A stretch of 64,000 nucleotides of DNA, from contig LFCP01000004.1 in the NCBI GenBank assembly GCA_001189155.1, positions 1,998 to 65,997 on the forward strand. The letters are read 5' to 3'. The notes below the pieces were generated by a model. The model had not been told where the DNA came from. It made no database searches and worked only from the letters and a program-made list of their open reading frames with translations. The first letter of the stretch is position 1. Every line of letters begins with the position of its first letter. Source of the stretch: Parcubacteria bacterium C7867-006. GTDB taxonomy: Bacteria; Patescibacteriota; Minisyncoccia; Phycocordibacterales; DATDWN01. The position numbers and the translations under genes were made by a program. Shown here piece by piece: positions 3,156 through 64,000 of the stretch.

Positions 3156-3841
3156 TGGCTCAGGAAAATGTTTGGGAAAGGGAATATAGAAAATCAAAAC
3201 TTTTAACAAAAGAGAACAAACCACAGTCAGATGTGGTTCGTTTTGTTCAGTTTTTAAAAAAGGAAGAAGGACTAATTCCTGAAAATTTAAGTATTTTGGA
3301 TCTTGGTTCTGGAACAGGAAGAAATAGTTTTTATTTTGCAGAAATAGGGAATAAGGTTTTGGGTTTAGAAATATCAAAAACTGCAATAGAAATAGGAAAT
3401 GATAATGCAAAAAATGCTGGTTTGAATGTTAAGTATATAAAGCAAAGCATTGGAGAAATATTTCCATGTGACAGTGAGTCAGTTGATGTTGTTTTAGACG
3501 TTACATCATCCAACTCCTTAAATGAGTCAGAAAGGGAAGTGTTTCTATCTGAAACAAATCGTGTTTTAAAAAGTGGAGGGTATTTTTTTACAAAAGCTCT
3601 GTGTAAAGATGGTGATGATAATGCAAAATTTTTAATAAAAAATTTTCCAGGAAAAGAAAAAGATACATATATAATGCCTGAGCTCGGGGTGACAGAGCGA
3701 GTGTGGACCAAAGATGATTTTGTTCAGACCTATGAGAAATATTTTAAAATTTTACATATGGAAAAAAAGACAAGTTATTCTCGTATGAACAGTCGGAGCT
3801 ATAAAAGAAACTTTTGGATTGTGTATATGAAAAAAGCTTAA
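3155..3841 (+). CDS. class I SAM-dependent methyltransferase
   Basis: Motif I LDLGSGTGRNSFYFAE. Confidence 0.6.
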   Translation: MAQENVWEREYRKSKLLTKENKPQSDVVRFVQFLKKEEGLIPENLSILDLGSGTGRNSFYFAEIGNKVLGLEISKTAIEIGNDNAKNAGLNVKYIKQSIGEIFPCDSESVDVVLDVTSSNSLNESEREVFLSETNRVLKSGGYFFTKALCKDGDDNAKFLIKNFPGKEKDTYIMPELGVTERVWTKDDFVQTYEKYFKILHMEKKTSYSRMNSRSYKRNFWIVYMKKA

Positions 3842-3843
3842 TA

Positions 3844-3871
3844 TTGACTTTTTTAAAAAATAAGTTATACT
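3844..3871 (+). promoter_or_regulatory. sigma70-like promoter TTGACT-N16-TATACT upstream of the GC-rich clpP-like cassette
   Basis: TTGACT at 3844-3849, TATACT at 3866-3871, about 26 nt before RBS aaaggggag and ATG 3898. Confidence 0.4.
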
Positions 3872-3897
3872 ATGTGGCTAGGAAAGGGGAGTTAGCT

Positions 3898-4470
3898 ATG
3901 AATGACTTGCAGAGAAGGTGGCTTGAGAAGAATCGCATCGGCATCATCGACGAGGTCAATCGCGACATGTTCGTTTATGTTCGCGAGGCAATCGCCATCA
4001 AAATGGGTGAAGGTGGCCCACCAATCACAGTTCACATCTCAAGTGGTGGTGGCGCTGTTGTATGGGGTCTCGATATCTATGACCTCATCAACTTCTACCC
4101 GGGCAAGAAGGTCGGGGTCGTACATTCTATGGCGGCATCGATGGCATCCATCATCCTCCAGGCGTGTGACTGGCGAACGGCAACACCTTACGCTTCAGTT
4201 CTGATTCACCACGTGAACAACCAGAACCTCAAGCTGGATGTTGCCAGAGACAAGAATGAGCTCGAGAAGTTCATCGCCGGCATGGAGAAGAGCCAGAGCA
4301 AGTTGTATGAGATTCTTGTTCGGCGCACTGGAAAACCGATGGAGGAAATCAGTGCCCGTTGCAAGATGGAAGAATCCATGACTGCGCAGGAGGCGCTCAA
4401 CTATCACCTCATCGACCAGATTGTGGTTCAGGAGTCTGACGTGGTGATTCCAGAACCCGAAAAGAAATAA
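3898..4470 (+). CDS. ClpP-like serine protease (S14 family) encoded on a GC-rich islet
   Basis: Aligns by eye to ClpP: GGAVVWGLDIYD, catalytic Ser context VHSMAASMASI, His context SVLIHH, and the C-terminal EALNYHLIDQIV block. The ORF-track start at 3814 is an AT-rich in-frame extension. The true start is ATG 3898, preceded by an SD. GC-ending codons contrast with the flanks. Confidence 0.65.
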   Translation: MNDLQRRWLEKNRIGIIDEVNRDMFVYVREAIAIKMGEGGPPITVHISSGGGAVVWGLDIYDLINFYPGKKVGVVHSMAASMASIILQACDWRTATPYASVLIHHVNNQNLKLDVARDKNELEKFIAGMEKSQSKLYEILVRRTGKPMEEISARCKMEESMTAQEALNYHLIDQIVVQESDVVIPEPEKK

Positions 4471-4551: not shown

Positions 4552-5532
4552 ATGACTAAAAAAACATTACTTTCGGGAGTAAAACCTACAGGACGGCCAC
4601 ATATTGGAAACTATTTTGGTGCTATGCGCCAGTTCGTTGATATGCAGGATGAGTATAATGCTATATATATGATAGCTGACTATCACGCGCTTAACTTTAT
4701 TCAAAATAAAGAGGAGTTGAATCAAGCTATCATTGATTTAACTATAGACTATCTAGCTCTAGGTTTGGACCCTAAAAAATCTATTATTTTCAAACAATCA
4801 GATGTAATGGAGCATACAGAATTGGCTTGGATTTTTGACACTATTACAACAATGCCGTATCTAGAGAGAGCTCATGCATACAAGGATGCCGAGGTAAAGA
4901 ATAAGGAAATAAGTGTTGGAACTTTTAACTACCCGATGCTTATGGCTGCAGATATTTTGTTATATGACGTTGATGCAGTACCTGTTGGTCAGGATCAAAA
5001 ACAGCATGTTGAGTATGCTCGTGATACAGCACAAAAATTTAACTTCATTTTTGGAAAAGAAGTTTTTAAACTTCCTGAATCAAAGATATTAGGTGAAGTA
5101 GCAGTCGTTCCTGGAATTGATGGTCAGAAAATGAGTAAAAGTTATGGAAACACAATTCCGCTTTTTGCTACATTGGATGAAATCACAAAAGCAGTGATGT
5201 CTATTCCTACAGACTCAAAACCAATGAACGAACCTAGAAATCCGGAGGAAGACAATGTTTTTAAACTTCACAAACTATTTTCAAAATCAGAGGATTTATT
5301 TGTTTTGAGAGAAAGATATGAAAAAGGTGAAATAGGTCACAAAGAATCAAAAGAGATTTTGATAAAAAATATTGATGCTTTTATTGCACCACTTCGTGAA
5401 AAGAGAGATCAAATAGCTCACGATATAGATTATGTTCTAGATGTTTTGAAAGATGGTGGAAAGAGAGCAAAAGCAAAAGCAGAAAAGAAAATGGAAGCTG
5501 TGCGAGAGGTGATAGGAGTTAAACTATACTAA
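4552..5532 (+). CDS. trpS: tryptophanyl-tRNA synthetase
   Basis: Class I HIGH-type motif PTGRPHIGNYFGA and the KMSKS motif (QKMSKSYGN). Length 326 aa. Confidence 0.9.
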   Translation: MTKKTLLSGVKPTGRPHIGNYFGAMRQFVDMQDEYNAIYMIADYHALNFIQNKEELNQAIIDLTIDYLALGLDPKKSIIFKQSDVMEHTELAWIFDTITTMPYLERAHAYKDAEVKNKEISVGTFNYPMLMAADILLYDVDAVPVGQDQKQHVEYARDTAQKFNFIFGKEVFKLPESKILGEVAVVPGIDGQKMSKSYGNTIPLFATLDEITKAVMSIPTDSKPMNEPRNPEEDNVFKLHKLFSKSEDLFVLRERYEKGEIGHKESKEILIKNIDAFIAPLREKRDQIAHDIDYVLDVLKDGGKRAKAKAEKKMEAVREVIGVKLY

Positions 5533-5561
5533 GAGACTCTATTTTGATAGTATAAAATTCT

Positions 5562-6956
5562 ATGAAAAGAACTTATATAAAGGATTTGAGTAAGGAAGTT
5601 GGTCAGGAAGTTACTATTTCTGGCTGGGTGGATGTTCGTCGAGACCAAGGGAAAATGGTCTTTATGGATATGCGAGATATGACTGGAAAGGTGCAAGGTG
5701 TTGTTCTCCCAAACCATCCAGAGGCTATAGAGCAGGTAAAAGAGGTGAGAAACGAATGGGTTCTCTCTGTAACTGGCCTTATAAATAAACGACCAGAAAG
5801 AAATGTTAAAGCTGGTGTTCTAAATGGTGATATAGAAATGGAAATCACTGGTATAGAAGTTTTGAATAAATCAGAGACTATTCCTTTTGATATTTCTGGG
5901 GACACAAAAGAAATAAATGAGGAAGTTCGTTTGAAGTATAGATATGTTGATTTGCGTTCAGATAGAATGCAGAAAAATATCAGGAATCGGCACAAAGTAA
6001 TAAAGTTTATTCGAGATTATTTGGATAATGAAAACTTTATTGAAGTTGAGACTCCTATACTTACAAAATCAACTCCAGAAGGTTCACGAGATTATGTTGT
6101 GCCTGCGAGACTTTATCCAGGAAAGTTTTATGCACTTCCACAATCACCACAACAGTACAAACAACTACTTATGACAGCTGGTGTAGAGAAATATTTCCAG
6201 ATTGCACGATGTATGCGAGATGAGGATACTCGCGGAGACAGACAACCAGAGTTCACACAGTTAGATATGGAAATGAGTTTTGTTAAACAAGAAGATGTAA
6301 TGGAACTAAATGAGAAACTTTTGATCGAACTTGTTACAAAACTATATCCAGAAAAGAAAATTCAACAGATTCCTTTCCCACGACTTACATATGCAGAAGC
6401 AATGGAGAAGTATGGAAACGATAAACCTGATCTAAGAGAAGATAAAAATGATCCAGACTTACTGGCTTTCTGTTGGGTTATTGATTTTCCTTTCTTTGAG
6501 AAAACAGACACAGGAGCATGGACATTTACACACAACCCATTTTCACGACCAAAGCCAGAACATGTTGAGTGGCTAATGAAAAAAGAAAATATTGGTGAAA
6601 TACTGACAACTCAGTATGACGTTGCTCTAAACGGTATGGAAATTGGTGGAGGAAGTATAAGAAACCATGATCCAGAGGCTTTGCGAAAAGTTTTTGAAAT
6701 AATGGGTCACGAGTCAGATGCTATAGACAGAAACTTCGGTCATATGATGACAGCTTTTTCTCTTGGAACTCCACCACACGGAGGTATCGCTTGGGGACTA
6801 GATAGGTTCGTGATGACACTTCAGAATGAACCGAACATTCGTGAAGTTATTCCTTTTGCAAAAACAGGAGAAGGTAAAGACCCTATGATGGACTCTCCAG
6901 CAGAAATTTCTGTTGACCAACTATTGGAACTCGGAATTACTCTAAGAAAGAAATAA
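5562..6956 (+). CDS. aspS: aspartyl-tRNA synthetase, short (archaeal/non-discriminating-type, no GAD insertion). AsnRS not fully excluded
   Basis: Class IIb motifs: LPQSPQQYKQLLM, ARCMRDED, GGGSIR. At 464 aa it lacks the bacterial insertion domain. Confidence 0.75.
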   Translation: MKRTYIKDLSKEVGQEVTISGWVDVRRDQGKMVFMDMRDMTGKVQGVVLPNHPEAIEQVKEVRNEWVLSVTGLINKRPERNVKAGVLNGDIEMEITGIEVLNKSETIPFDISGDTKEINEEVRLKYRYVDLRSDRMQKNIRNRHKVIKFIRDYLDNENFIEVETPILTKSTPEGSRDYVVPARLYPGKFYALPQSPQQYKQLLMTAGVEKYFQIARCMRDEDTRGDRQPEFTQLDMEMSFVKQEDVMELNEKLLIELVTKLYPEKKIQQIPFPRLTYAEAMEKYGNDKPDLREDKNDPDLLAFCWVIDFPFFEKTDTGAWTFTHNPFSRPKPEHVEWLMKKENIGEILTTQYDVALNGMEIGGGSIRNHDPEALRKVFEIMGHESDAIDRNFGHMMTAFSLGTPPHGGIAWGLDRFVMTLQNEPNIREVIPFAKTGEGKDPMMDSPAEISVDQLLELGITLRKK

Positions 6957-48570: not shown

Positions 48571-49410
48571 CTAGGTCTTCAGCACGCCGAAGAACTGACG
48601 TGCAGCAGCCTGAACCGCAGTGAGCTCAGCTTCAGCCTTATCAGCCCGACTCTTCTCTTGAGCCAAGGCTTCGTTCGCCAACTTCAGATCAGCGGTGACT
48701 TTCGCAACCTCCTCGCGGTAAAGCTCAAGCTCCGCGAGCTGATCCTGGGTAGAAGCAATCTGCCCCTCGAGTTCAGAGACTCTCATGGACAGATCGGTGC
48801 TCTGTTTCTGCAGTGGAGCGATCGAGCGACGGAGTTCGTCACACTCCTGCTCCTTCCTGATAAACAGTTGATACTGTTTGAGAACATTGTCGATGACCTC
48901 ACCCAGGTTGGGAATCCCACTTCGGAACTTCTCCAACTGACGGGCAGAATCGCTCCAGCCCTTATAGGGAGAAGACGAGCCGTTCCCGTCAGCCTTGTTC
49001 AGATCCTGAACAAGAACCGACGGAACAGGACCCTGATCCTCCACCGATGGATGTTCCTTCGGCTTCTCCTTTTCATTCGGGTAAGCCGAACTAAGAAGAT
49101 CCCGAATCTCAGCGGGGGTCAGAGTCTTGGGATGAAGAATCGCTCCATCGGGCCGGTCGTTCTTGATCTTCATCGTCAGCTCGTGATCGACGAAGCGGGT
49201 CTGAAGAATGAGTCCCGTGTTGCTCGGAACTGTGCACTTCTTACTGTCATCAGTGAACCAGAACAGCAAACGTCGGTCGCCCTTGTTGTACCAACCACCC
49301 ATGTTGCTCGGCCTGACGCCAGCAACAAGAATGGTGCCGTTGTTGGCGAGAACTGTCTTGGCCTGTTCGATGAGAGTGCTGGTGATCATGATCCGCTCCT
49401 TTTCCGACAC
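48571..49410 (-). CDS. hypothetical protein: N-terminal globular domain + C-terminal coiled-coil (GC-rich islet)
   Basis: RBS aaaggag 7 nt before the ATG on the minus strand. The C-terminal 110 aa is heptad-rich (LQKQSTDLSMRVSELEGQIASTQDQLAELE...). The antisense 297-aa plus-strand ORF is rejected. Confidence 0.5.
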   Translation of the reverse strand: MSEKERIMITSTLIEQAKTVLANNGTILVAGVRPSNMGGWYNKGDRRLLFWFTDDSKKCTVPSNTGLILQTRFVDHELTMKIKNDRPDGAILHPKTLTPAEIRDLLSSAYPNEKEKPKEHPSVEDQGPVPSVLVQDLNKADGNGSSSPYKGWSDSARQLEKFRSGIPNLGEVIDNVLKQYQLFIRKEQECDELRRSIAPLQKQSTDLSMRVSELEGQIASTQDQLAELELYREEVAKVTADLKLANEALAQEKSRADKAEAELTAVQAAARQFFGVLKT

Positions 49411-51239: not shown

Positions 51240-51263
51240 AGGGTAAATCTTGTGCCGTGGGTG

Positions 51264-51527
51264 CTAGTCGTGACCCTCCGGACTCATGTTGAGGTTGTCC
51301 CAGCGACAGGCCTTGAGCCCCTCGCAAGAATTGAAGAACGTGCACTTGCGCGCCTCGGAGCCGAGCTGGCAACCGCGCGTCTGGCGATCTCCCGTCGTGA
51401 TGTGACTGAAGAGGATCTCATCAGACTGAATCCTGTTCAGACGCCCTGGCAGGGTAACTCCCTGCAGGGCCCGAAATTCCTCCACAACTTCGATGTGACG
51501 TGTGACTTCGCGGGACAAACCTTCCAT
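51264..51527 (-). CDS. small 4-Cys hypothetical protein (87 aa), GC-rich islet
   Basis: RBS gaggagg 8 nt before the ATG. C-terminal Cys cluster C-x9-C-x6-C-x5-C. The antisense plus ORF is rejected. Confidence 0.45.
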   Translation of the reverse strand: MEGLSREVTRHIEVVEEFRALQGVTLPGRLNRIQSDEILFSHITTGDRQTRGCQLGSEARKCTFFNSCEGLKACRWDNLNMSPEGHD

Positions 51528-51685
51528 TATGCGCCTCCTCTAATATAGTACGACTAACACATTTAGCTGTCAAATAATATTTTTAATATACCAACCAAAA
51601 CAAGGATATATTTATTTATAATTTGACAAAATATTGTTATATATGTAGGATTTTTCTCTGAAAGGCCTTAGGAGGGCCTGAGTTC

Positions 51686-51883
51686 ATGGGGAAAGAGACC
51701 AGAGGATTCGCATCGATGTCACCGGAGAAGCAGCGTGAGATCGCAAGCAAGGGCGGCCGGGCCGCACACGAGAAGGGCAAGGCCCACGAGTGGACCAGCG
51801 ATGAAGCTCGTGAGGCTGGACGCAAGGGCGGCATGGCCAGTCGTGGCGGGCGCGGCAAGACTACCGCTCAGCCGACGACCTAG
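51686..51883 (+). CDS. KGG-repeat general stress protein (YciG/Con-10-like)
   Basis: Repeated KGG/RGG motifs (ASKGGRAAHEKGKAHEWTSDEAREAGRKGGMASRGGRGK). RBS aggaggg. GC-rich. Confidence 0.55.
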   Translation: MGKETRGFASMSPEKQREIASKGGRAAHEKGKAHEWTSDEAREAGRKGGMASRGGRGKTTAQPTT

Positions 51884-51904
51884 TCGACAGTAGCAACGCA
51901 ACGC

Positions 51905-54100: not shown

Positions 54101-54442
54101 TTACTTTCTGACAAGTCCGAGGTTTGCTCGGACTTTATCGTTCAAATTCTTGATATCTTCAGCCTTCACATCTCCTTTCGGAAGTTCGTTCATCTTGCTC
54201 AGGCACTGAGCCTGAAAAGAAACGTCGTGATCTGCTCTGATAACGAGCAGAGCGGCATCGCTCGAGGCTTGAGCCCCGACCTTCGAGATGGAGGGCCAAC
54301 CAATAGCCCTCACGATGCGTTTCATCACCTGACCGTGTGCCGTTGGCTGAGGTGGATCCGCTCGAGCCATCTCCAAAATCATCTTTGGAATTTCTTCCAC
54401 GACAACTGGTGGATTGTAGAAATGCGAGTTCTTCCAACTCAT
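54101..54442 (-). CDS. hypothetical protein (113 aa) on a GC-rich islet
   Basis: RBS ggaggggg precedes the ATG. GC-ending codons. Overlapping plus-strand ORFs are rejected. Confidence 0.45.
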   Translation of the reverse strand: MSWKNSHFYNPPVVVEEIPKMILEMARADPPQPTAHGQVMKRIVRAIGWPSISKVGAQASSDAALLVIRADHDVSFQAQCLSKMNELPKGDVKAEDIKNLNDKVRANLGLVRK

Positions 54443-60572: not shown

Positions 60573-61925
60573 CTAGTCCTTACTCCTGACCGTGGTCCTC
60601 AAGTCAACCTGATCGCGGAGCATGGTCAATTTTTCAGCGAGATCATCGATCTCCTTGAGAACGTTCTGTCTGTCCTCAAGTGGACGATTTTGAAAGAGCT
60701 CATCGATTGCACGATGGGGCATGTCAACGAGATGCTCCAAGTTCTCGTTCGCCTTCCGCAGATAGTTGCGCAGGATTACGTAATCCTCTCTTGGACTACG
60801 TCCGGGTGACCCAACCCTGATGCCGGCGGCCGAAGCCAACTGGCGAGCCAGATGTTTGGCCTTCGCAACACTAAGACCCTTCTCGACAGCCTCCTTGCAG
60901 ACTTTGAGTTGAATCTCCCGGCTCTCGATTGACGCCAGGAAAACACCCATGGACTGTGGAAGTGCCGAACGCTCATTGTCGTCCGGCTCCAACATATCCT
61001 GAACTTCCTTTGGCAGGTTGAGAAGCTTCAGGTAGTTGAATGCCCAGACGTCGGTCTTGCCGGTCAACGAGGCGATGATCCTGAGAGCAGCCATCTTGCT
61101 GAGGTCTGCATATTCAGGAAAATCCATCATGCGCCGAATTGAGCGAGCGGTCTCGAGAGGAGTGTGTCCTTCGCGAGCAAAGTTCGCCACGAAAGACTTC
61201 TTGAACTGGTCTTCGGAGTCTTTGACCTCCCTGACCGTAGCGAGCATCTCCTCGACACCGAGCTTGGTGCAAGCACGAAGCCGTCGCTCACCCTCAATCA
61301 GCTCATAGTCAAAGTTGGGGTCATCATCGATCGGACGAACGATGATCGCCGTAACCTGACCAATGGCCTTGATGCTGGTCATGAGTTCCTGCATCTTCTT
61401 GGGACTGAAGTACGTGCGAGGTTGACCCTTGAGGGGTCTCACCCGTTTCGTCTTCACCAGGAACTCACCCTCCCACTTTCTTGGTGCTGGAGGTACAGTC
61501 ACAGGACCGGGGCTGCGCATGAGGTGAGCCGGAATCTGCCGTCTGGTGGTAACACCAGGCACAGCGTAATCAGCTCCGTTACCATTGCCGTTCCCGTTTC
61601 CACCAACTTCATCGCTGAAATAGGTGTTGAGGTTCTTTTCCAGATGGTTCGAGGAGTACTCGGTGTGAATCTGGTCGTCCTTGATGCCGTTCTTTCTTGC
61701 CCACGTTTTGATGATGTTCTCGGCATCTTTCTTCATTGCGTATGGAAGAACGATTCCAACCACACCGTCAGGCACAGTACCGGCGCCAAGGAACTCCCAT
61801 GAGTTCATCCAGTGGACACGTGCTCCAAACCGGAGTTGTGCCTTTCTGGGTAGGCTCATGTTGACGACAATGATCTTTCCACCGGAAGGAAAGGGCAGAC
61901 CACTAGTTGTGTTGCTCAAACTCAA
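60573..61925 (-). CDS. ParB/Srx-fold (ParB N-terminal domain) protein with N-terminal extension and GNGNGNGNG linker. Orphan (no parA)
   Basis: IKAIGQVTAIIVRPID ... YELIEGERRLRACTKLG and NFAREGHTPLETARS match ParB boxes. TTG start with RBS ggagg. GC-rich islet. Confidence 0.6.
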   Translation of the reverse strand: MSLSNTTSGLPFPSGGKIIVVNMSLPRKAQLRFGARVHWMNSWEFLGAGTVPDGVVGIVLPYAMKKDAENIIKTWARKNGIKDDQIHTEYSSNHLEKNLNTYFSDEVGGNGNGNGNGADYAVPGVTTRRQIPAHLMRSPGPVTVPPAPRKWEGEFLVKTKRVRPLKGQPRTYFSPKKMQELMTSIKAIGQVTAIIVRPIDDDPNFDYELIEGERRLRACTKLGVEEMLATVREVKDSEDQFKKSFVANFAREGHTPLETARSIRRMMDFPEYADLSKMAALRIIASLTGKTDVWAFNYLKLLNLPKEVQDMLEPDDNERSALPQSMGVFLASIESREIQLKVCKEAVEKGLSVAKAKHLARQLASAAGIRVGSPGRSPREDYVILRNYLRKANENLEHLVDMPHRAIDELFQNRPLEDRQNVLKEIDDLAEKLTMLRDQVDLRTTVRSKD

Positions 61926-62061: not shown

Positions 62062-62150
62062 GGGCCCGTAGCTCATCTGGCAGTTGCGTAGCAACAAGTC
62101 AAATAGCCACATCATTTGAGCAAATGATTAAACGGGTCTAAAACAAGTTT
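62062..62150 (+). pseudogene. degenerate tRNA-Ala copy (5' acceptor + D-arm intact, T-arm deleted, internal insertion)
   Basis: The first 19 nt gggcccgtagctcatctgg are identical to the downstream tRNA-Ala. It also shares cacatcatttg and cgggtc, but cannot form a cloverleaf. Confidence 0.4.
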
Positions 62151-62164
62151 GAAATTTAATATTT

Positions 62165-62237
62165 GGGCCCGTAGCTCATCTGGTAGAGCACATCATTTGC
62201 AATGATGGGGTGGCAGGTTCGAGTCCTGTCGGGTCCA
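62165..62237 (+). tRNA. tRNA-Ala (anticodon UGC)
   Basis: Manual cloverleaf: acceptor GGGCCCG/CGGGTCC with G3:U70, D-arm GCTC-ATCTGGTA-GAGC, anticodon arm CATCA-TTTGCAA-TGATG, T-arm GCAGG-TTCGAGT-CCTGT, discriminator A. CCA is not encoded. Confidence 0.9.
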
Positions 62238-62239
62238 CA

Positions 62240-62270
62240 GAAAAAAGTCCGCTGTAAGGCGGATTTTTTC
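62240..62270. terminator. short hairpin flanked by A6/T6 runs after the tRNA
   Basis: aaaaaag tccgc tgtaag gcgga ttttttc. Confidence 0.4.
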
Positions 62271-62271
62271 G

Positions 62272-62360
62272 TGACCCGAAGTAAAGCGAAGCTTTACTTC
62301 AGGACTCGAACGGAAACCTGGTTACGCGGCGAGTGCGCCGTGTCAGGTTTCCGCGTCCTA
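62272..62360. repeat. structured non-coding segment carrying an inverted 12-nt copy of the tRNA-Ala T-arm plus nested long stem-loops
   Basis: caggactcgaac (62296-62307) is the reverse complement of gttcgagtcctg in the tRNA. Stems cgaagtaaagc/gctttacttcg and cggaaacctg/caggtttccg. Confidence 0.35.
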
Positions 62361-62513
62361 ACTTTTATTGAGTGGCGATGAATTAAAAGTTAGGAAGAGT
62401 CCTGTGTTTCAGAACAAGTGTACTAACCCTATAAGGGTCAAATCCGATATTTAACATTTGACAATCCTCCCAAAATACCGCAATCTTTTGCTCAGAGCGA
62501 GGGAGGCTCTTTA

Positions 62514-62873
62514 ATGCAAAACACTGTCGCAAAAGAAGCGACATTGCAGACTAAAGCCGTAAAATCGTGGCTGAAATCTGCAGGTTACAGAGAAGTAACC
62601 AGGATGGACCTCAAAGCTAATGGGGTTCTCATCATGGTAGACACGACAAGAATCAAACCGGTTGAAGATGGTGAGATCAAAGCAGGTTACACTGCGGGCA
62701 CCACACTAGTTCAACTCGGCAACCCACCGATAACCGAAAGCGAAATGTTCGGCGGGCTTGAAGTTCTACACTTCCAGATGACCTACCCTGCAATGGGCAG
62801 ACATTCGTTTGTGCCGGTAGACGATGTGCTTACCGGCAAAGAGTCAACGCTCTGGTTTGTTGAAAAGGAGTAG
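62514..62873 (+). CDS. hypothetical protein (119 aa), paralog A of a tandem pair on a GC-rich islet
   Basis: RBS gagggagg precedes the ATG. Shares blocks with the next ORF: GVLIMVDTTRI~CIVMVDVQRL, EVLHFQMTYPAMGRHSFVPVDDVL~KVVHFRHIERASHRPDFVPLEEIL, LWFVEK~RYFVRR. Confidence 0.45.
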   Translation: MQNTVAKEATLQTKAVKSWLKSAGYREVTRMDLKANGVLIMVDTTRIKPVEDGEIKAGYTAGTTLVQLGNPPITESEMFGGLEVLHFQMTYPAMGRHSFVPVDDVLTGKESTLWFVEKE

Positions 62874-62877
62874 ATAG

Positions 62878-63258
62878 GTGGACAATCCACGTTACTTTGA
62901 AGAGGAGATCTTCAAAGCCAAAGCTGTCATGGCGCAACTCGGCTTCGATCCAGTCAAACTGGAGGACATCGTCGCGGACAACTGTATCGTGATGGTGGAT
63001 GTCCAGCGACTCTGCGCCCACAACGCACCTCCAAGCAAACTCGGTGAGGCAGGAACGTCGGTCATCTGCATCGACAACGAGCCAATCCGTGAGCACGAAA
63101 GGATTGCTGGACGAAAGGTGGTCCACTTCCGCCACATCGAGAGAGCTTCCCACAGACCAGACTTTGTCCCTTTGGAGGAAATACTCCGAGACGAGTACGA
63201 CCCGCGAGTCGCCAACTCGTCCGACACGCGCTACTTCGTGAGGCGCAAACGCGATTAG
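62878..63258 (+). CDS. hypothetical protein (126 aa), paralog B of tandem pair
   Basis: GTG start with RBS aaaggag, 4 nt after paralog A's stop. Homology blocks as above. Confidence 0.45.
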   Translation: MDNPRYFEEEIFKAKAVMAQLGFDPVKLEDIVADNCIVMVDVQRLCAHNAPPSKLGEAGTSVICIDNEPIREHERIAGRKVVHFRHIERASHRPDFVPLEEILRDEYDPRVANSSDTRYFVRRKRD

Positions 63259-63282
63259 CGCTACGACTAGACGTCGCACGAG

Positions 63283-63313
63283 AGCCCCGGCCGATACCGG
63301 GGTTCTTTTTTTA
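63283..63313 (+). terminator. intrinsic terminator (ccccgg/ccgggg stem + T7)
   Basis: gagccccggccgataccggggttcttttttt. Confidence 0.6.
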
Positions 63314-63336
63314 TATAAAAAAGATATAATTAAAAT

Positions 63337-63633
63337 ATGTCTATAGAAAATCCAGAAAATGATAAAAAAATAAACCCTGCAGAAATTGAGACTCAAAAAG
63401 AAGAAGAGATTTGGGAGTCTTTTAAAAATACAGAGTCAAAAGAAAACATTAAAAATATTTTTGAAAGTATACTAGAAAAACTTGTAATGGAAGATTACAA
63501 ATACTACCTAGAAGAAACAGAATTTGGAGTTGCTGTAAAAAGAACTGACAATAACGAAACAATTTATTTTACAGATGTAGAGGCTGAGATTGAGACACTG
63601 TACGAAGCAGTAGCAAAAGGAAGAGTTGATTAG
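63337..63633 (+). CDS. hypothetical acidic protein (98 aa)
   Basis: Glu-rich. No motif recognised. Confidence 0.35.
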   Translation: MSIENPENDKKINPAEIETQKEEEIWESFKNTESKENIKNIFESILEKLVMEDYKYYLEETEFGVAVKRTDNNETIYFTDVEAEIETLYEAVAKGRVD

Positions 63634-64000
63634 TTTTTATTTAAAGCTAGATTGATTGTGTGATGAATAAAATCTCGTATTGAAACACCAACAGCCTCCA
63701 AAGATCTCCTTATGACAGACTTTTCTCCTAATTTAGGTTGAGTATTTACCTCTAGCACATATATTCCCCTTCGTGGAGTAACAATAAAATCTGTAGTTGA
63801 ATAATGTCGCAGACGTAATCCTTTGTGAATTATTTTTGCTAGATGCTCCATTTCATTTTTTTCATCATCAGTAAAACGAGTTGGATAAAATGGATTGTCA
63901 CTAGAATCAAGCTCAACTGGAGCTAAAGTATACAAATTCTTATCTCTAAAACCCTCTATTACACCAGAGGAAGCCCGCGTACCGTTTATATACTCCTCCA
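63630..64000 (-). CDS. ddl: D-alanine--D-alanine ligase, C-terminal part (N-terminus beyond window end)
   Basis: GIYVLEVNTQP ... S ... P ... A ... GVS ... LI resembles the Ddl C-terminal ATP-grasp segment. The reading frame continues open to position 64000. Confidence 0.6.
   Translation of the reverse strand, partial: EEYINGTRASSGVIEGFRDKNLYTLAPVELDSSDNPFYPTRFTDDEKNEMEHLAKIIHKGLRLRHYSTTDFIVTPRRGIYVLEVNTQPKLGEKSVIRRSLEAVGVSIRDFIHHTINLALNKN

Follow-up and report, generated by a model that had tools for sequence, protein, structure and literature searches.

The stretch analysed here, referred to as the window, comprises 64,000 nts of contig LFCP01000004.1 (positions 1,998 to 65,997, forward strand) from Parcubacteria bacterium C7867-006 (assembly GCA_001189155.1), whose 652 kb genome has a GC content of 36% and is of Hanford groundwater origin (PMC4508563). 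Towards the right end of the window, downstream of a tRNA-Ala gene, two small open reading frames (ORFs) lie in tandem on a GC-rich islet and encode paralogous proteins of a previously undescribed family; they are termed ORF1 and ORF2 below, and together the pair. The stop codon of ORF1 ends at position 62873 and ORF2 starts at 62878, leaving a gap of 4 nts, each ORF is preceded by its own Shine-Dalgarno (SD) sequence, and a single terminator-like hairpin is common to both. This arrangement, which a first-pass annotation of the letters had described, was confirmed (Table 1).

Two paralogous genes with a conserved promoter and leader

End-to-end comparison of the two proteins by BLASTP gave 30% identity over 121 columns (E=3e-16), and their local alignment score of 124 was far above that of shuffled controls (24.3 +/- 4.0, maximum 54, in 2000 shuffles; z=24.7). 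The homology asserted by the first-pass annotation is upheld by these values, and the three blocks it had named (xIVMVDxxR, VxHF...FVP...L and xxFVxK/R) are also conserved blocks of a wider family. Orthologs of both ORFs are present in the same arrangement in a related assembly, GCA_040959485.1 (designated L001; other related loci are designated in the same manner). The ortholog of ORF1 is 72% identical, with a ratio of nonsynonymous to synonymous substitutions (dN/dS) of 0.11, and that of ORF2 is 84% identical, with a dN/dS of 0.056, synonymous sites being near saturation in both cases; the ORF2 ortholog carries GGAAGGAA ahead of its ATG start at the equivalent position. Two long ORFs located on the minus strand opposite the pair (62830-63396 and 62892-63227) are a by-product of the GC-rich sequence. 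ORF1 and ORF2 are genuine genes and true paralogs.

In the NCBI record KND47644.1 (Parcubacteria bacterium C7867-006), ORF1 is represented by residues 41-119 only, a protein of 79 aa starting at M41 that loses the N-terminal helix and the GYREVT strand. The 119-aa form is backed by the orthologs and by the family alignment. The exact sequence of ORF2 was recorded only from a Logan assembly and was not in the NCBI protein set covered by the searches.

A predicted promoter upstream of the pair, of the type TTGACA-N17, has a pattern that occurs once in the window. TTGACA-N17-CAATAT/CAATCT was also found ahead of family genes in L001, L019 (twice), L006, L018 and L182 and, in weaker form, in L012 and L007. 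It is followed by a leader motif that reads CAGAGC-GAG-GGAGGCTCT in the window and is likewise unique there, 0 chance occurrences being expected. This layout of promoter and leader is kept ahead of paralogs that share just 25-50% protein identity. A scan of IMG/VR with the leader motif returned 120 chance matches, without any family gene. The leader can fold into a hairpin of 4-5 bp (AGAGC/GCTCT) whose stem is without covariation, and it could be an RNA hairpin presenting the SD, a DNA operator or a case of plain sequence conservation. Judging from the layout, the promoter is probably active and the pair would be co-transcribed from it to the one terminator downstream, past which the GC content drops directly to ~0.30. 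Expression of each gene copy would be driven by the conserved promoter and leader that travel with it.

Table 1. Features in and around the gene pair (window coordinates)
Feature	Position	Strand	Remarks
GC-rich ParB-like gene	60573-61925	-	450 aa; ParB_N E=2.4e-16, HTH_ParB E=8.5e-9 (Pfam)
tRNA-derived pseudo-tRNA	62062-62140	+	first 19 nt of tRNA-Ala, two hairpins, acceptor-like 3' strand
tRNA-Ala(UGC)	62165-62238	+	275 nt upstream of the pair
Inverted repeat from tRNA T-arm	62268-62310	.	just past the tRNA terminator; 62300-62311 antisense to tRNA positions 53-64
Predicted promoter, -35 TTGACA	62458-62463	+	conserved layout; 17-nt spacer to -10
Predicted promoter, -10 CAATCT	62481-62486	+	conserved layout
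5' leader motif CAGAGC-N-GGGAGGCTCT	62493-62510	+	holds the SD of ORF1
SD of ORF1, GGGAGG	62501-62506	+	read in the sequence
ORF1	62514-62873	+	ATG start, 119 aa, 'TLWFVE' subtype
SD of ORF2, AAGGAG	62865-62870	+	read in the sequence, within the final codons of ORF1
ORF2	62878-63258	+	GTG start, 126 aa, 'EEILRDEYDP...TRYFV' subtype
Terminator-like hairpin and T-run	63280-63316	+	common to both ORFs; 3' edge of GC-rich islet; kept in L001
98-aa gene	63337-63633	+	AT-rich (GC 0.30), product very acidic; right-hand neighbour and host-side boundary
ddl (D-Ala-D-Ala ligase), 3' part	63630-64000	-	convergent with the pair; syntenic anchor

A family of small proteins and its predicted fold

An exhaustive search of 1.84 billion representative proteins with a profile of both paralogs gave 27 matches at E<=1e-3. 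About 22 of the 27, corresponding to ~22 clusters, are proteins of 107-156 aa (typically about 110-130 aa) sharing the blocks GYRPVTxxDL, LVMVDV, AGTTxIxL, VVxF/YH, FVPLEEFL and TRYFVK. They fall into two subtypes, one matching ORF1 and the other ORF2, and Parcubacteria are the only source organisms named for them. The remaining matches, long repeat proteins (P0016, P0021 and P0029 were read and P0007 was assumed to be alike), were rejected as members because their repeated Ig-like or other units produce additive chance matches to profile positions 43-94. In L012 and L019, family genes are adjoined by a more divergent type of 116 aa, which probably represents a remote paralog of the family (hhalign E=6.6e-5, probability 64%).

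When the two proteins and 26 family members were scanned against Pfam, NCBIfam, PHROGs and PADLOC, nothing rose above noise, the only PHROG match having E=0.11, and a profile search of PDB sequences gave just two chance matches with E about 1. No relatives were found in the GTDB representative genomes scanned, and a search of the window for extra family copies found none. The tRNA was the sole match at the gathering threshold in an Rfam scan. The first-pass annotation had recognised no family, and these searches agree: the pair belongs to an unnamed, previously undescribed family of small proteins, and no housekeeping assignment was obtained from Pfam, NCBIfam, PHROGs, PADLOC or PDB sequences.

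AlphaFold2 (AF2) models of both proteins are confident (ORF1: predicted local distance difference test score 91.4, predicted template modelling score 0.82; ORF2: 94.2 and 0.86, respectively) and have the same topology, in which an N-terminal helix is followed by a small beta-barrel of long bent beta-strands. Foldseek matches to these models were weak (TIP60 chromo-barrel, Tudor, the Pelota N-domain, the eIF5A N-domain and SspB; Sm-like class) and none was significant, the best values being a probability of 0.69, E=0.19 and a template modelling (TM) score of 0.5 when normalised by the target and 0.3 when normalised by the query. Small beta-barrel folds are typically non-enzymatic binding modules. 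Those of the SH3, chromo, Tudor and Sm-like kinds (4QQG, 2QI2, 1OUL) were the best Foldseek matches of both models and resemble them in size (about 110-130 aa), the N-terminal helix and the bent strands. Absent from these folds are an additional strand and the long loop at residues 44-62 of the family, which shows no sequence relationship to them.

Near-invariant positions of the family are limited to D32, V42 and G62, and the alignment contains no conserved residue of catalytic type. The isoelectric point (pI) ranges from 4.7 to 9.8. One subfamily carries a co-varying pair of cysteines (YHC...C-FVP), which points to a structural contact. The pair encodes diverged small cytoplasmic proteins and, because no residue of catalytic type is conserved, the family proteins are likely to be non-enzymatic binders that would act stoichiometrically on a protein or nucleic-acid partner.

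The adaptor SspB (PF04386) was considered owing to the likeness of a 'VPL..VL..Y' motif, the N-terminal helix and the tmRNA neighbour of the family member in L008, and was rejected. Pfam was negative, alignment of the family with residues 1-112 of E. coli SspB by hhalign (the sequence was checked against PDB 1YFN) gave a probability of 1%, and comparison of folds by Foldseek with 1OUL_B gave E=1.3 and a TM score of 0.25. SspB has a flexible ClpX-binding C-terminal tail, whereas the C-terminus in the family models is a confident, buried beta-strand.

Base composition and the tRNA-Ala locus

The first-pass annotation had placed the pair on a GC-rich islet next to a tRNA, at a possible integration hotspot, and both the composition and the setting are in keeping with this. 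ORF1 has a GC content of 0.48 and a GC content at third codon positions (GC3) of 0.52; the values for ORF2 are 0.56 and 0.68, compared to a median GC3 of 0.265 in the window, where only 6 of 66 ORFs exceed a GC3 of 0.45. High expression as the cause of this bias was ruled out since GC3 is only 0.16-0.31 in ribosomal protein genes and DnaK. The family genes were GC-rich in all nine AT-rich contexts examined (GC3 0.5-0.68, compared to 0.2-0.34 for the host), the contrast holding in L001, L003, L006, L007, L016, L182 and L185, with an intermediate value in L012 (0.43). The member in L008, whose genome has a GC content of 47%, is of host-like composition.

Comparison of the window with L001 at the four-fold degenerate sites of conserved codons gave identities of 0.45-0.53 for the pair and 0.53-0.54 for the flanking 98-aa gene and ddl; the GC content at four-fold sites was 0.47-0.62 in the pair and 0.0-0.2 in host genes. 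Polarised synonymous changes in ORF1 amounted to 10 GC>AT versus 9 AT>GC; these counts are small, were summed over two outgroup rootings so that the window lineage is counted twice, and come from parsimony, which is unreliable at this divergence. As a rough estimate of our own, a foreign gene decaying under the AT bias of the host is expected to show a GC>AT excess of ~5:1. The family genes may have been re-supplied repeatedly from a GC-richer pool of Parcubacteria, or their composition may be maintained by some other means. Transfer among Patescibacteria is common (PMC12455944).

Four other GC-rich islets were seen in the window, none of which has the promoter and leader of the pair: a 218-aa ORF at 3814-4470 (+, GC3 0.60), a 279-aa protein whose C-terminal half is a coiled coil at 48571-49410 (-, GC3 0.64), the islet 51250-51900, in which 51686-51883 encodes a KGG-repeat stress protein of 65 aa (Pfam KGG, E=3e-15), and a 113-aa ORF at 54101-54442 (-, GC3 0.54).

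The sequence of tRNA-Ala is 100% identical in L001, L012, L019 and L006. It adjoins family genes in the window, L001, L019 and L006, lies 2 kb off in L012, and is on the strand opposite to the family genes in L001 and L019. Several elements derived from it surround the gene in the window. A pseudo-tRNA 103 nts upstream, called neither by ARAGORN nor by Rfam, has the hairpin GTTGC-GTA-GCAAC followed by an anticodon-arm-like hairpin with a changed loop, and adopts a cloverleaf-like fold (minimum free energy -23.8 kcal/mol, z -3.3); it is ~85% conserved in L012 (5673-5760) and degenerate in L019 (2364-2420). Downstream, the outer arms of an inverted repeat (TTCGxGACCCGA ... TCAGGACTCGAA) are conserved and its centre differs in each genome (L006 60-108, L012 5868-5925); this repeat may be a pseudo-attachment (pseudo-att) site for a serine recombinase or a small mobile hairpin. 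Fragments of the tRNA are thus found in both orientations (62062-62080, +; 62300-62311, -; a 9-mer at 62397-62405, +), and in L012 the 3' end of the tRNA recurs as a direct copy of 14 nts.

On the far side of the tRNA lies the ParB-like gene, which is atypical and has a GC content of 0.53 and a GC3 of 0.63. Its product consists of an N-terminal domain of ~100 aa without family match, a GNGNGNG linker, ParB_N and a ParB-type helix-turn-helix domain (HTH_ParB). The only close relative found is an ortholog in L019, 61% identical, which is immediately followed by a same-strand array of family genes; scanning metagenomes with the ParB-like protein alone found none, and scanning them with a ParB alignment gave only distant generic ParB genes with no family gene nearby. 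No ParA gene was seen beside the ParB-like gene in the window or in L019. The unit formed by the tRNA, a spacer, the ParB-like gene and its terminator is collinear between L019 and the reverse complement of the window, and homology stops after the terminator. With respect to the family genes, the tRNA-ParB unit of the window therefore has the opposite orientation, and this relative inversion is the only step of the rearrangement history around the tRNA that is established.

In two of the relatives, large serine recombinases with Resolvase and Recombinase domains, 61% identical to each other, are encoded at L001 2924-4477 and L019 793-2352. Both ORFs run through ~63 nts of the antisense strand of tRNA-Ala, so that the proteins share a C-terminal peptide encoded by the tRNA, ...DPTGLEPATPSLQMMCSTR. 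Since these genes are AT-rich like the host and are located across the tRNA from the GC-rich block, they probably belong to a separate element.

Family genes were seen in various neighbourhoods, in 1 to at least 3 copies per genome, with or without ParB and at varying positions. To the right of the pair, the 98-aa protein is of no known family; its orthologs occupy the same position in L001 (73% identity, 95 aa), L007 (78%) and L012-15 (34%), and the gene is absent at the L006 and L018 loci. Full-length ddl with the Pfam domain Dala_Dala_lig is found at this position in L001, L006, L012, L014 and L018. The order in L001 is the serine recombinase running through the tRNA-Ala antisense, the pair, the 98-aa homolog and ddl. 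In L019, the recombinase is followed by tRNA-Ala (-), the ParB-like ortholog, a gene of the 116-aa type, P0015 and the start of an ORF1 ortholog, so that ParB and at least three family-type genes make up one GC-rich block, the GC content being 0.50-0.57 from ParB onward. L006 has tRNA-Ala (+) with the same terminator and inverted repeat, then a small GC-rich membrane ORF, P0026 and ddl. In L012-15 the pair comes after DUF2177 and DUF1295, with tRNA-Ala 2 kb upstream, and in L007 the place of ORF2, after the ORF1-type gene, is taken by a GC-rich gene of 116 aa that is unrelated. The member in L008 lies directly after SmpB and tmRNA, and that in L016 is part of a 2.7-kb GC-rich block of seven small genes with ddl 3.4 kb away. 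Single family genes are present in L003, L006 (ORF2 type), L018 and L182 (ORF1 type, in L018 beside ddl) and L185. Three partners only recur across these loci: the 98-aa neighbour, a 141/147-aa upstream gene (L007, L018) and ParB (window, L019).

The 141/147-aa gene (L007 133-576, -; L018 24-449, -) encodes a helical protein without family match, 37% identical between the two loci; it is divergent from the ORF1-type gene, is GC-rich in L007 (0.50) and is absent from the window. In L016, a stretch of ~900 bp (5400-6300), 600 bp upstream of the family-gene block, has a GC content of 0.51-0.53 in a genome of ~38% GC; it contains no convincing ORF and gave no Rfam match, and could represent a gene in decay or an RNA not described so far.

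Origin and role of the pair

The explanation that we favour, by a modest degree of confidence, is that the pair is foreign-derived accessory cargo at a tRNA-Ala recombination hotspot, encoding small beta-barrel binders with a conserved promoter and leader and possibly with a loose link to ParB. The pair would be part of the cargo of a GC-rich variable region bounded by tRNA-Ala on one side and, on the other, by the 98-aa gene and ddl, which form a host block.

Several observations weigh against this explanation. Firstly, the window has no clean flanking direct repeats, only short tRNA-derived fragments, and neither an integrase nor any other gene for mobility (the serine recombinases of L001 and L019, used as tblastn queries, hit the tRNA antisense only), and scanning the IMG/VR viral contigs with the profiles of both subtypes revealed no relatives. 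Secondly, at least six related assemblies keep the pair, the 98-aa gene and ddl together in synteny, and the divergence of the pair at four-fold sites matches that of the flanking genes; the pair is therefore not a recent one-off insertion, and long vertical residence fits better than recent transfer. Thirdly, solitary GC-rich members in L003 and L185 lie between ordinary AT-rich core genes without markers of mobile elements, and ParB is adjacent in just 2 of ~11 distinct contexts. Finally, the proposal of binding instead of catalysis is drawn solely from the conservation pattern and a weak fold-class assignment.

Islands that are linked to tRNA or tmRNA genes and carry large serine recombinases resemble the locus in their deviant composition, tRNA adjacency, tRNA fragments and variable cargo; in relatives, the recombinase ORF enters the tRNA, and the L008 member lies directly after tmRNA. 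Unlike such islands, the window is without integrase and without a clean att duplication, and the residence of the pair beside ddl is as old as the divergence of the flanking genes. A second comparison concerns IncP plasmids, in which KorB, a regulator of the ParB family, controls small accessory genes that are arranged in arrays (kil/kle/klc). L019 is alike in that a ParB-family helix-turn-helix protein is followed by several small genes, each with a similar promoter and leader. In contrast to the KorB-controlled arrays, no similarity to KorA, Kle or Klc and no ParA or replication genes were found, and ParB accompanies only a minority of the contexts.

The family might instead be resident and lineage-specific in Parcubacteria, with a cellular role (for example in the neighbourhood of cell envelope or translation genes), inherited vertically near ddl and kept GC-rich by codon or mRNA selection or by biased gene conversion between tandem paralogs. 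We consider this rather unlikely. In its favour, the synteny with ddl extends over at least six assemblies, and ddl is also present at 3.4 kb in the more distant L016; divergence at synonymous sites equals that of the flanking host genes; solitary copies occur between core genes (L185); and the L008 member is host-like in its 47% GC genome. The balanced changes in ORF1 point in the same direction, as a decaying foreign gene should show a strong GC>AT excess, but few polarised changes were counted, and at such divergence parsimony is not reliable. Against residence, the family is rare (~22 clusters) and patchy, with a copy number of 1 to at least 3, the paralog is swapped for an unrelated gene in the close relative L007, the genes are compositional outliers in AT-rich hosts, and they are associated with tRNA, tmRNA, ParB and a serine recombinase.

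Compatible with foreign-derived cargo, and improbable as a specific role, is the suggestion of the first-pass annotation that the proteins serve in anti-defence or host interaction; as products of a mobile element, they would bind and inhibit a host protein, such as a component of restriction or another defence. Leading regions of conjugative elements often join ParB-like and anti-defence genes, and a ParB-like gene is adjacent here. The proteins are small and fast-evolving, ORF1 being 50% identical to its L007 counterpart compared to 78% for the 98-aa neighbour; they are encoded by tandem paralogs of variable copy number at an integration hotspot and have no conserved residues of catalytic type. 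However, PADLOC and PHROGs gave nothing above noise and the IMG/VR scans no relatives, acidity is not a constant trait of the proteins (pI 4.7-9.8), conjugation or phage genes are not neighbours in any of the contexts, and residence beside ddl looks long and vertical.

An improbable and more speculative explanation is that the family, often together with the atypical ParB-like gene, constitutes a self-contained cassette of promoter, leader, gene and terminator that moves or is exchanged among Parcubacteria and whose GC richness is actively maintained. The GC-rich copies that occur as single genes among unrelated core genes are in keeping with it, and the maintenance could be due to steady exchange with a pool rich in GC, to biased gene conversion between paralogs or to selection on nucleotide content. 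The family genes are not integron cassettes, which consist of a promoterless ORF followed by attC next to an IntI tyrosine integrase: each family gene or operon has its own promoter, leader and terminator, and serine recombinases were the sole recombinases found nearby in relatives.

It is very unlikely that the two genes form a toxin-antitoxin pair of type II or a comparable addiction system of two components, a view that the first-pass annotation had already taken to be unlikely. Two small genes in a tight operon on an islet, together with a weak MazE-like Pfam match in one family member (E=0.045), could suggest such a system, but the partners are paralogs with the same predicted topology instead of non-homologous proteins, and several genomes have a family member on its own (L003, L006, L018, L185), including either subtype without the other (ORF1 type in L018 and L182, ORF2 type in L006). 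Furthermore, the partner in L007 is an unrelated gene, and no toxin or antitoxin domain was detected in Pfam, NCBIfam, PHROGs or PADLOC. That the ORFs are spurious, lying in non-coding DNA that is GC-rich and has few stops, e.g. a structured RNA, as the long antisense ORFs typical of GC-rich DNA might suggest, is effectively refuted by the sense-frame dN/dS of 0.056-0.11 with synonymous sites near saturation, a protein family kept down to ~20% identity, the confident AF2 models and the Rfam scan, which at the gathering threshold gave the tRNA only.

As a tRNA-linked compositional islet, the setting of the pair is ordinary; what is mildly unusual is the persistence of its GC richness and a leader that is conserved beyond the protein. 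A practical correction concerns the public data, in which ORF1 is truncated to 79 aa and ORF2 is missing from the NCBI protein set searched. If the pair is foreign-derived cargo, a new and structurally confident protein family would join the poorly understood accessory gene pool of Parcubacteria, and a concrete hotspot, with tRNA-Ala, a serine recombinase and a ParB-like gene, would be pinned down in reduced genomes. If the family is instead an exchanged cassette, it would represent a novel type of small gene unit, mobile or autonomous in its composition, in bacteria of the Candidate Phyla Radiation, on which the tRNA-targeting serine recombinase might act in trans. The evolutionary side offers the most useful lead: a GC3 of 0.5-0.68 persists in AT-rich hosts despite host-like synonymous divergence, and the promoter and leader of each copy are better conserved than the protein. 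An explanation of these two features could reveal how genes of foreign origin are retained and controlled in the very small genomes of symbionts.

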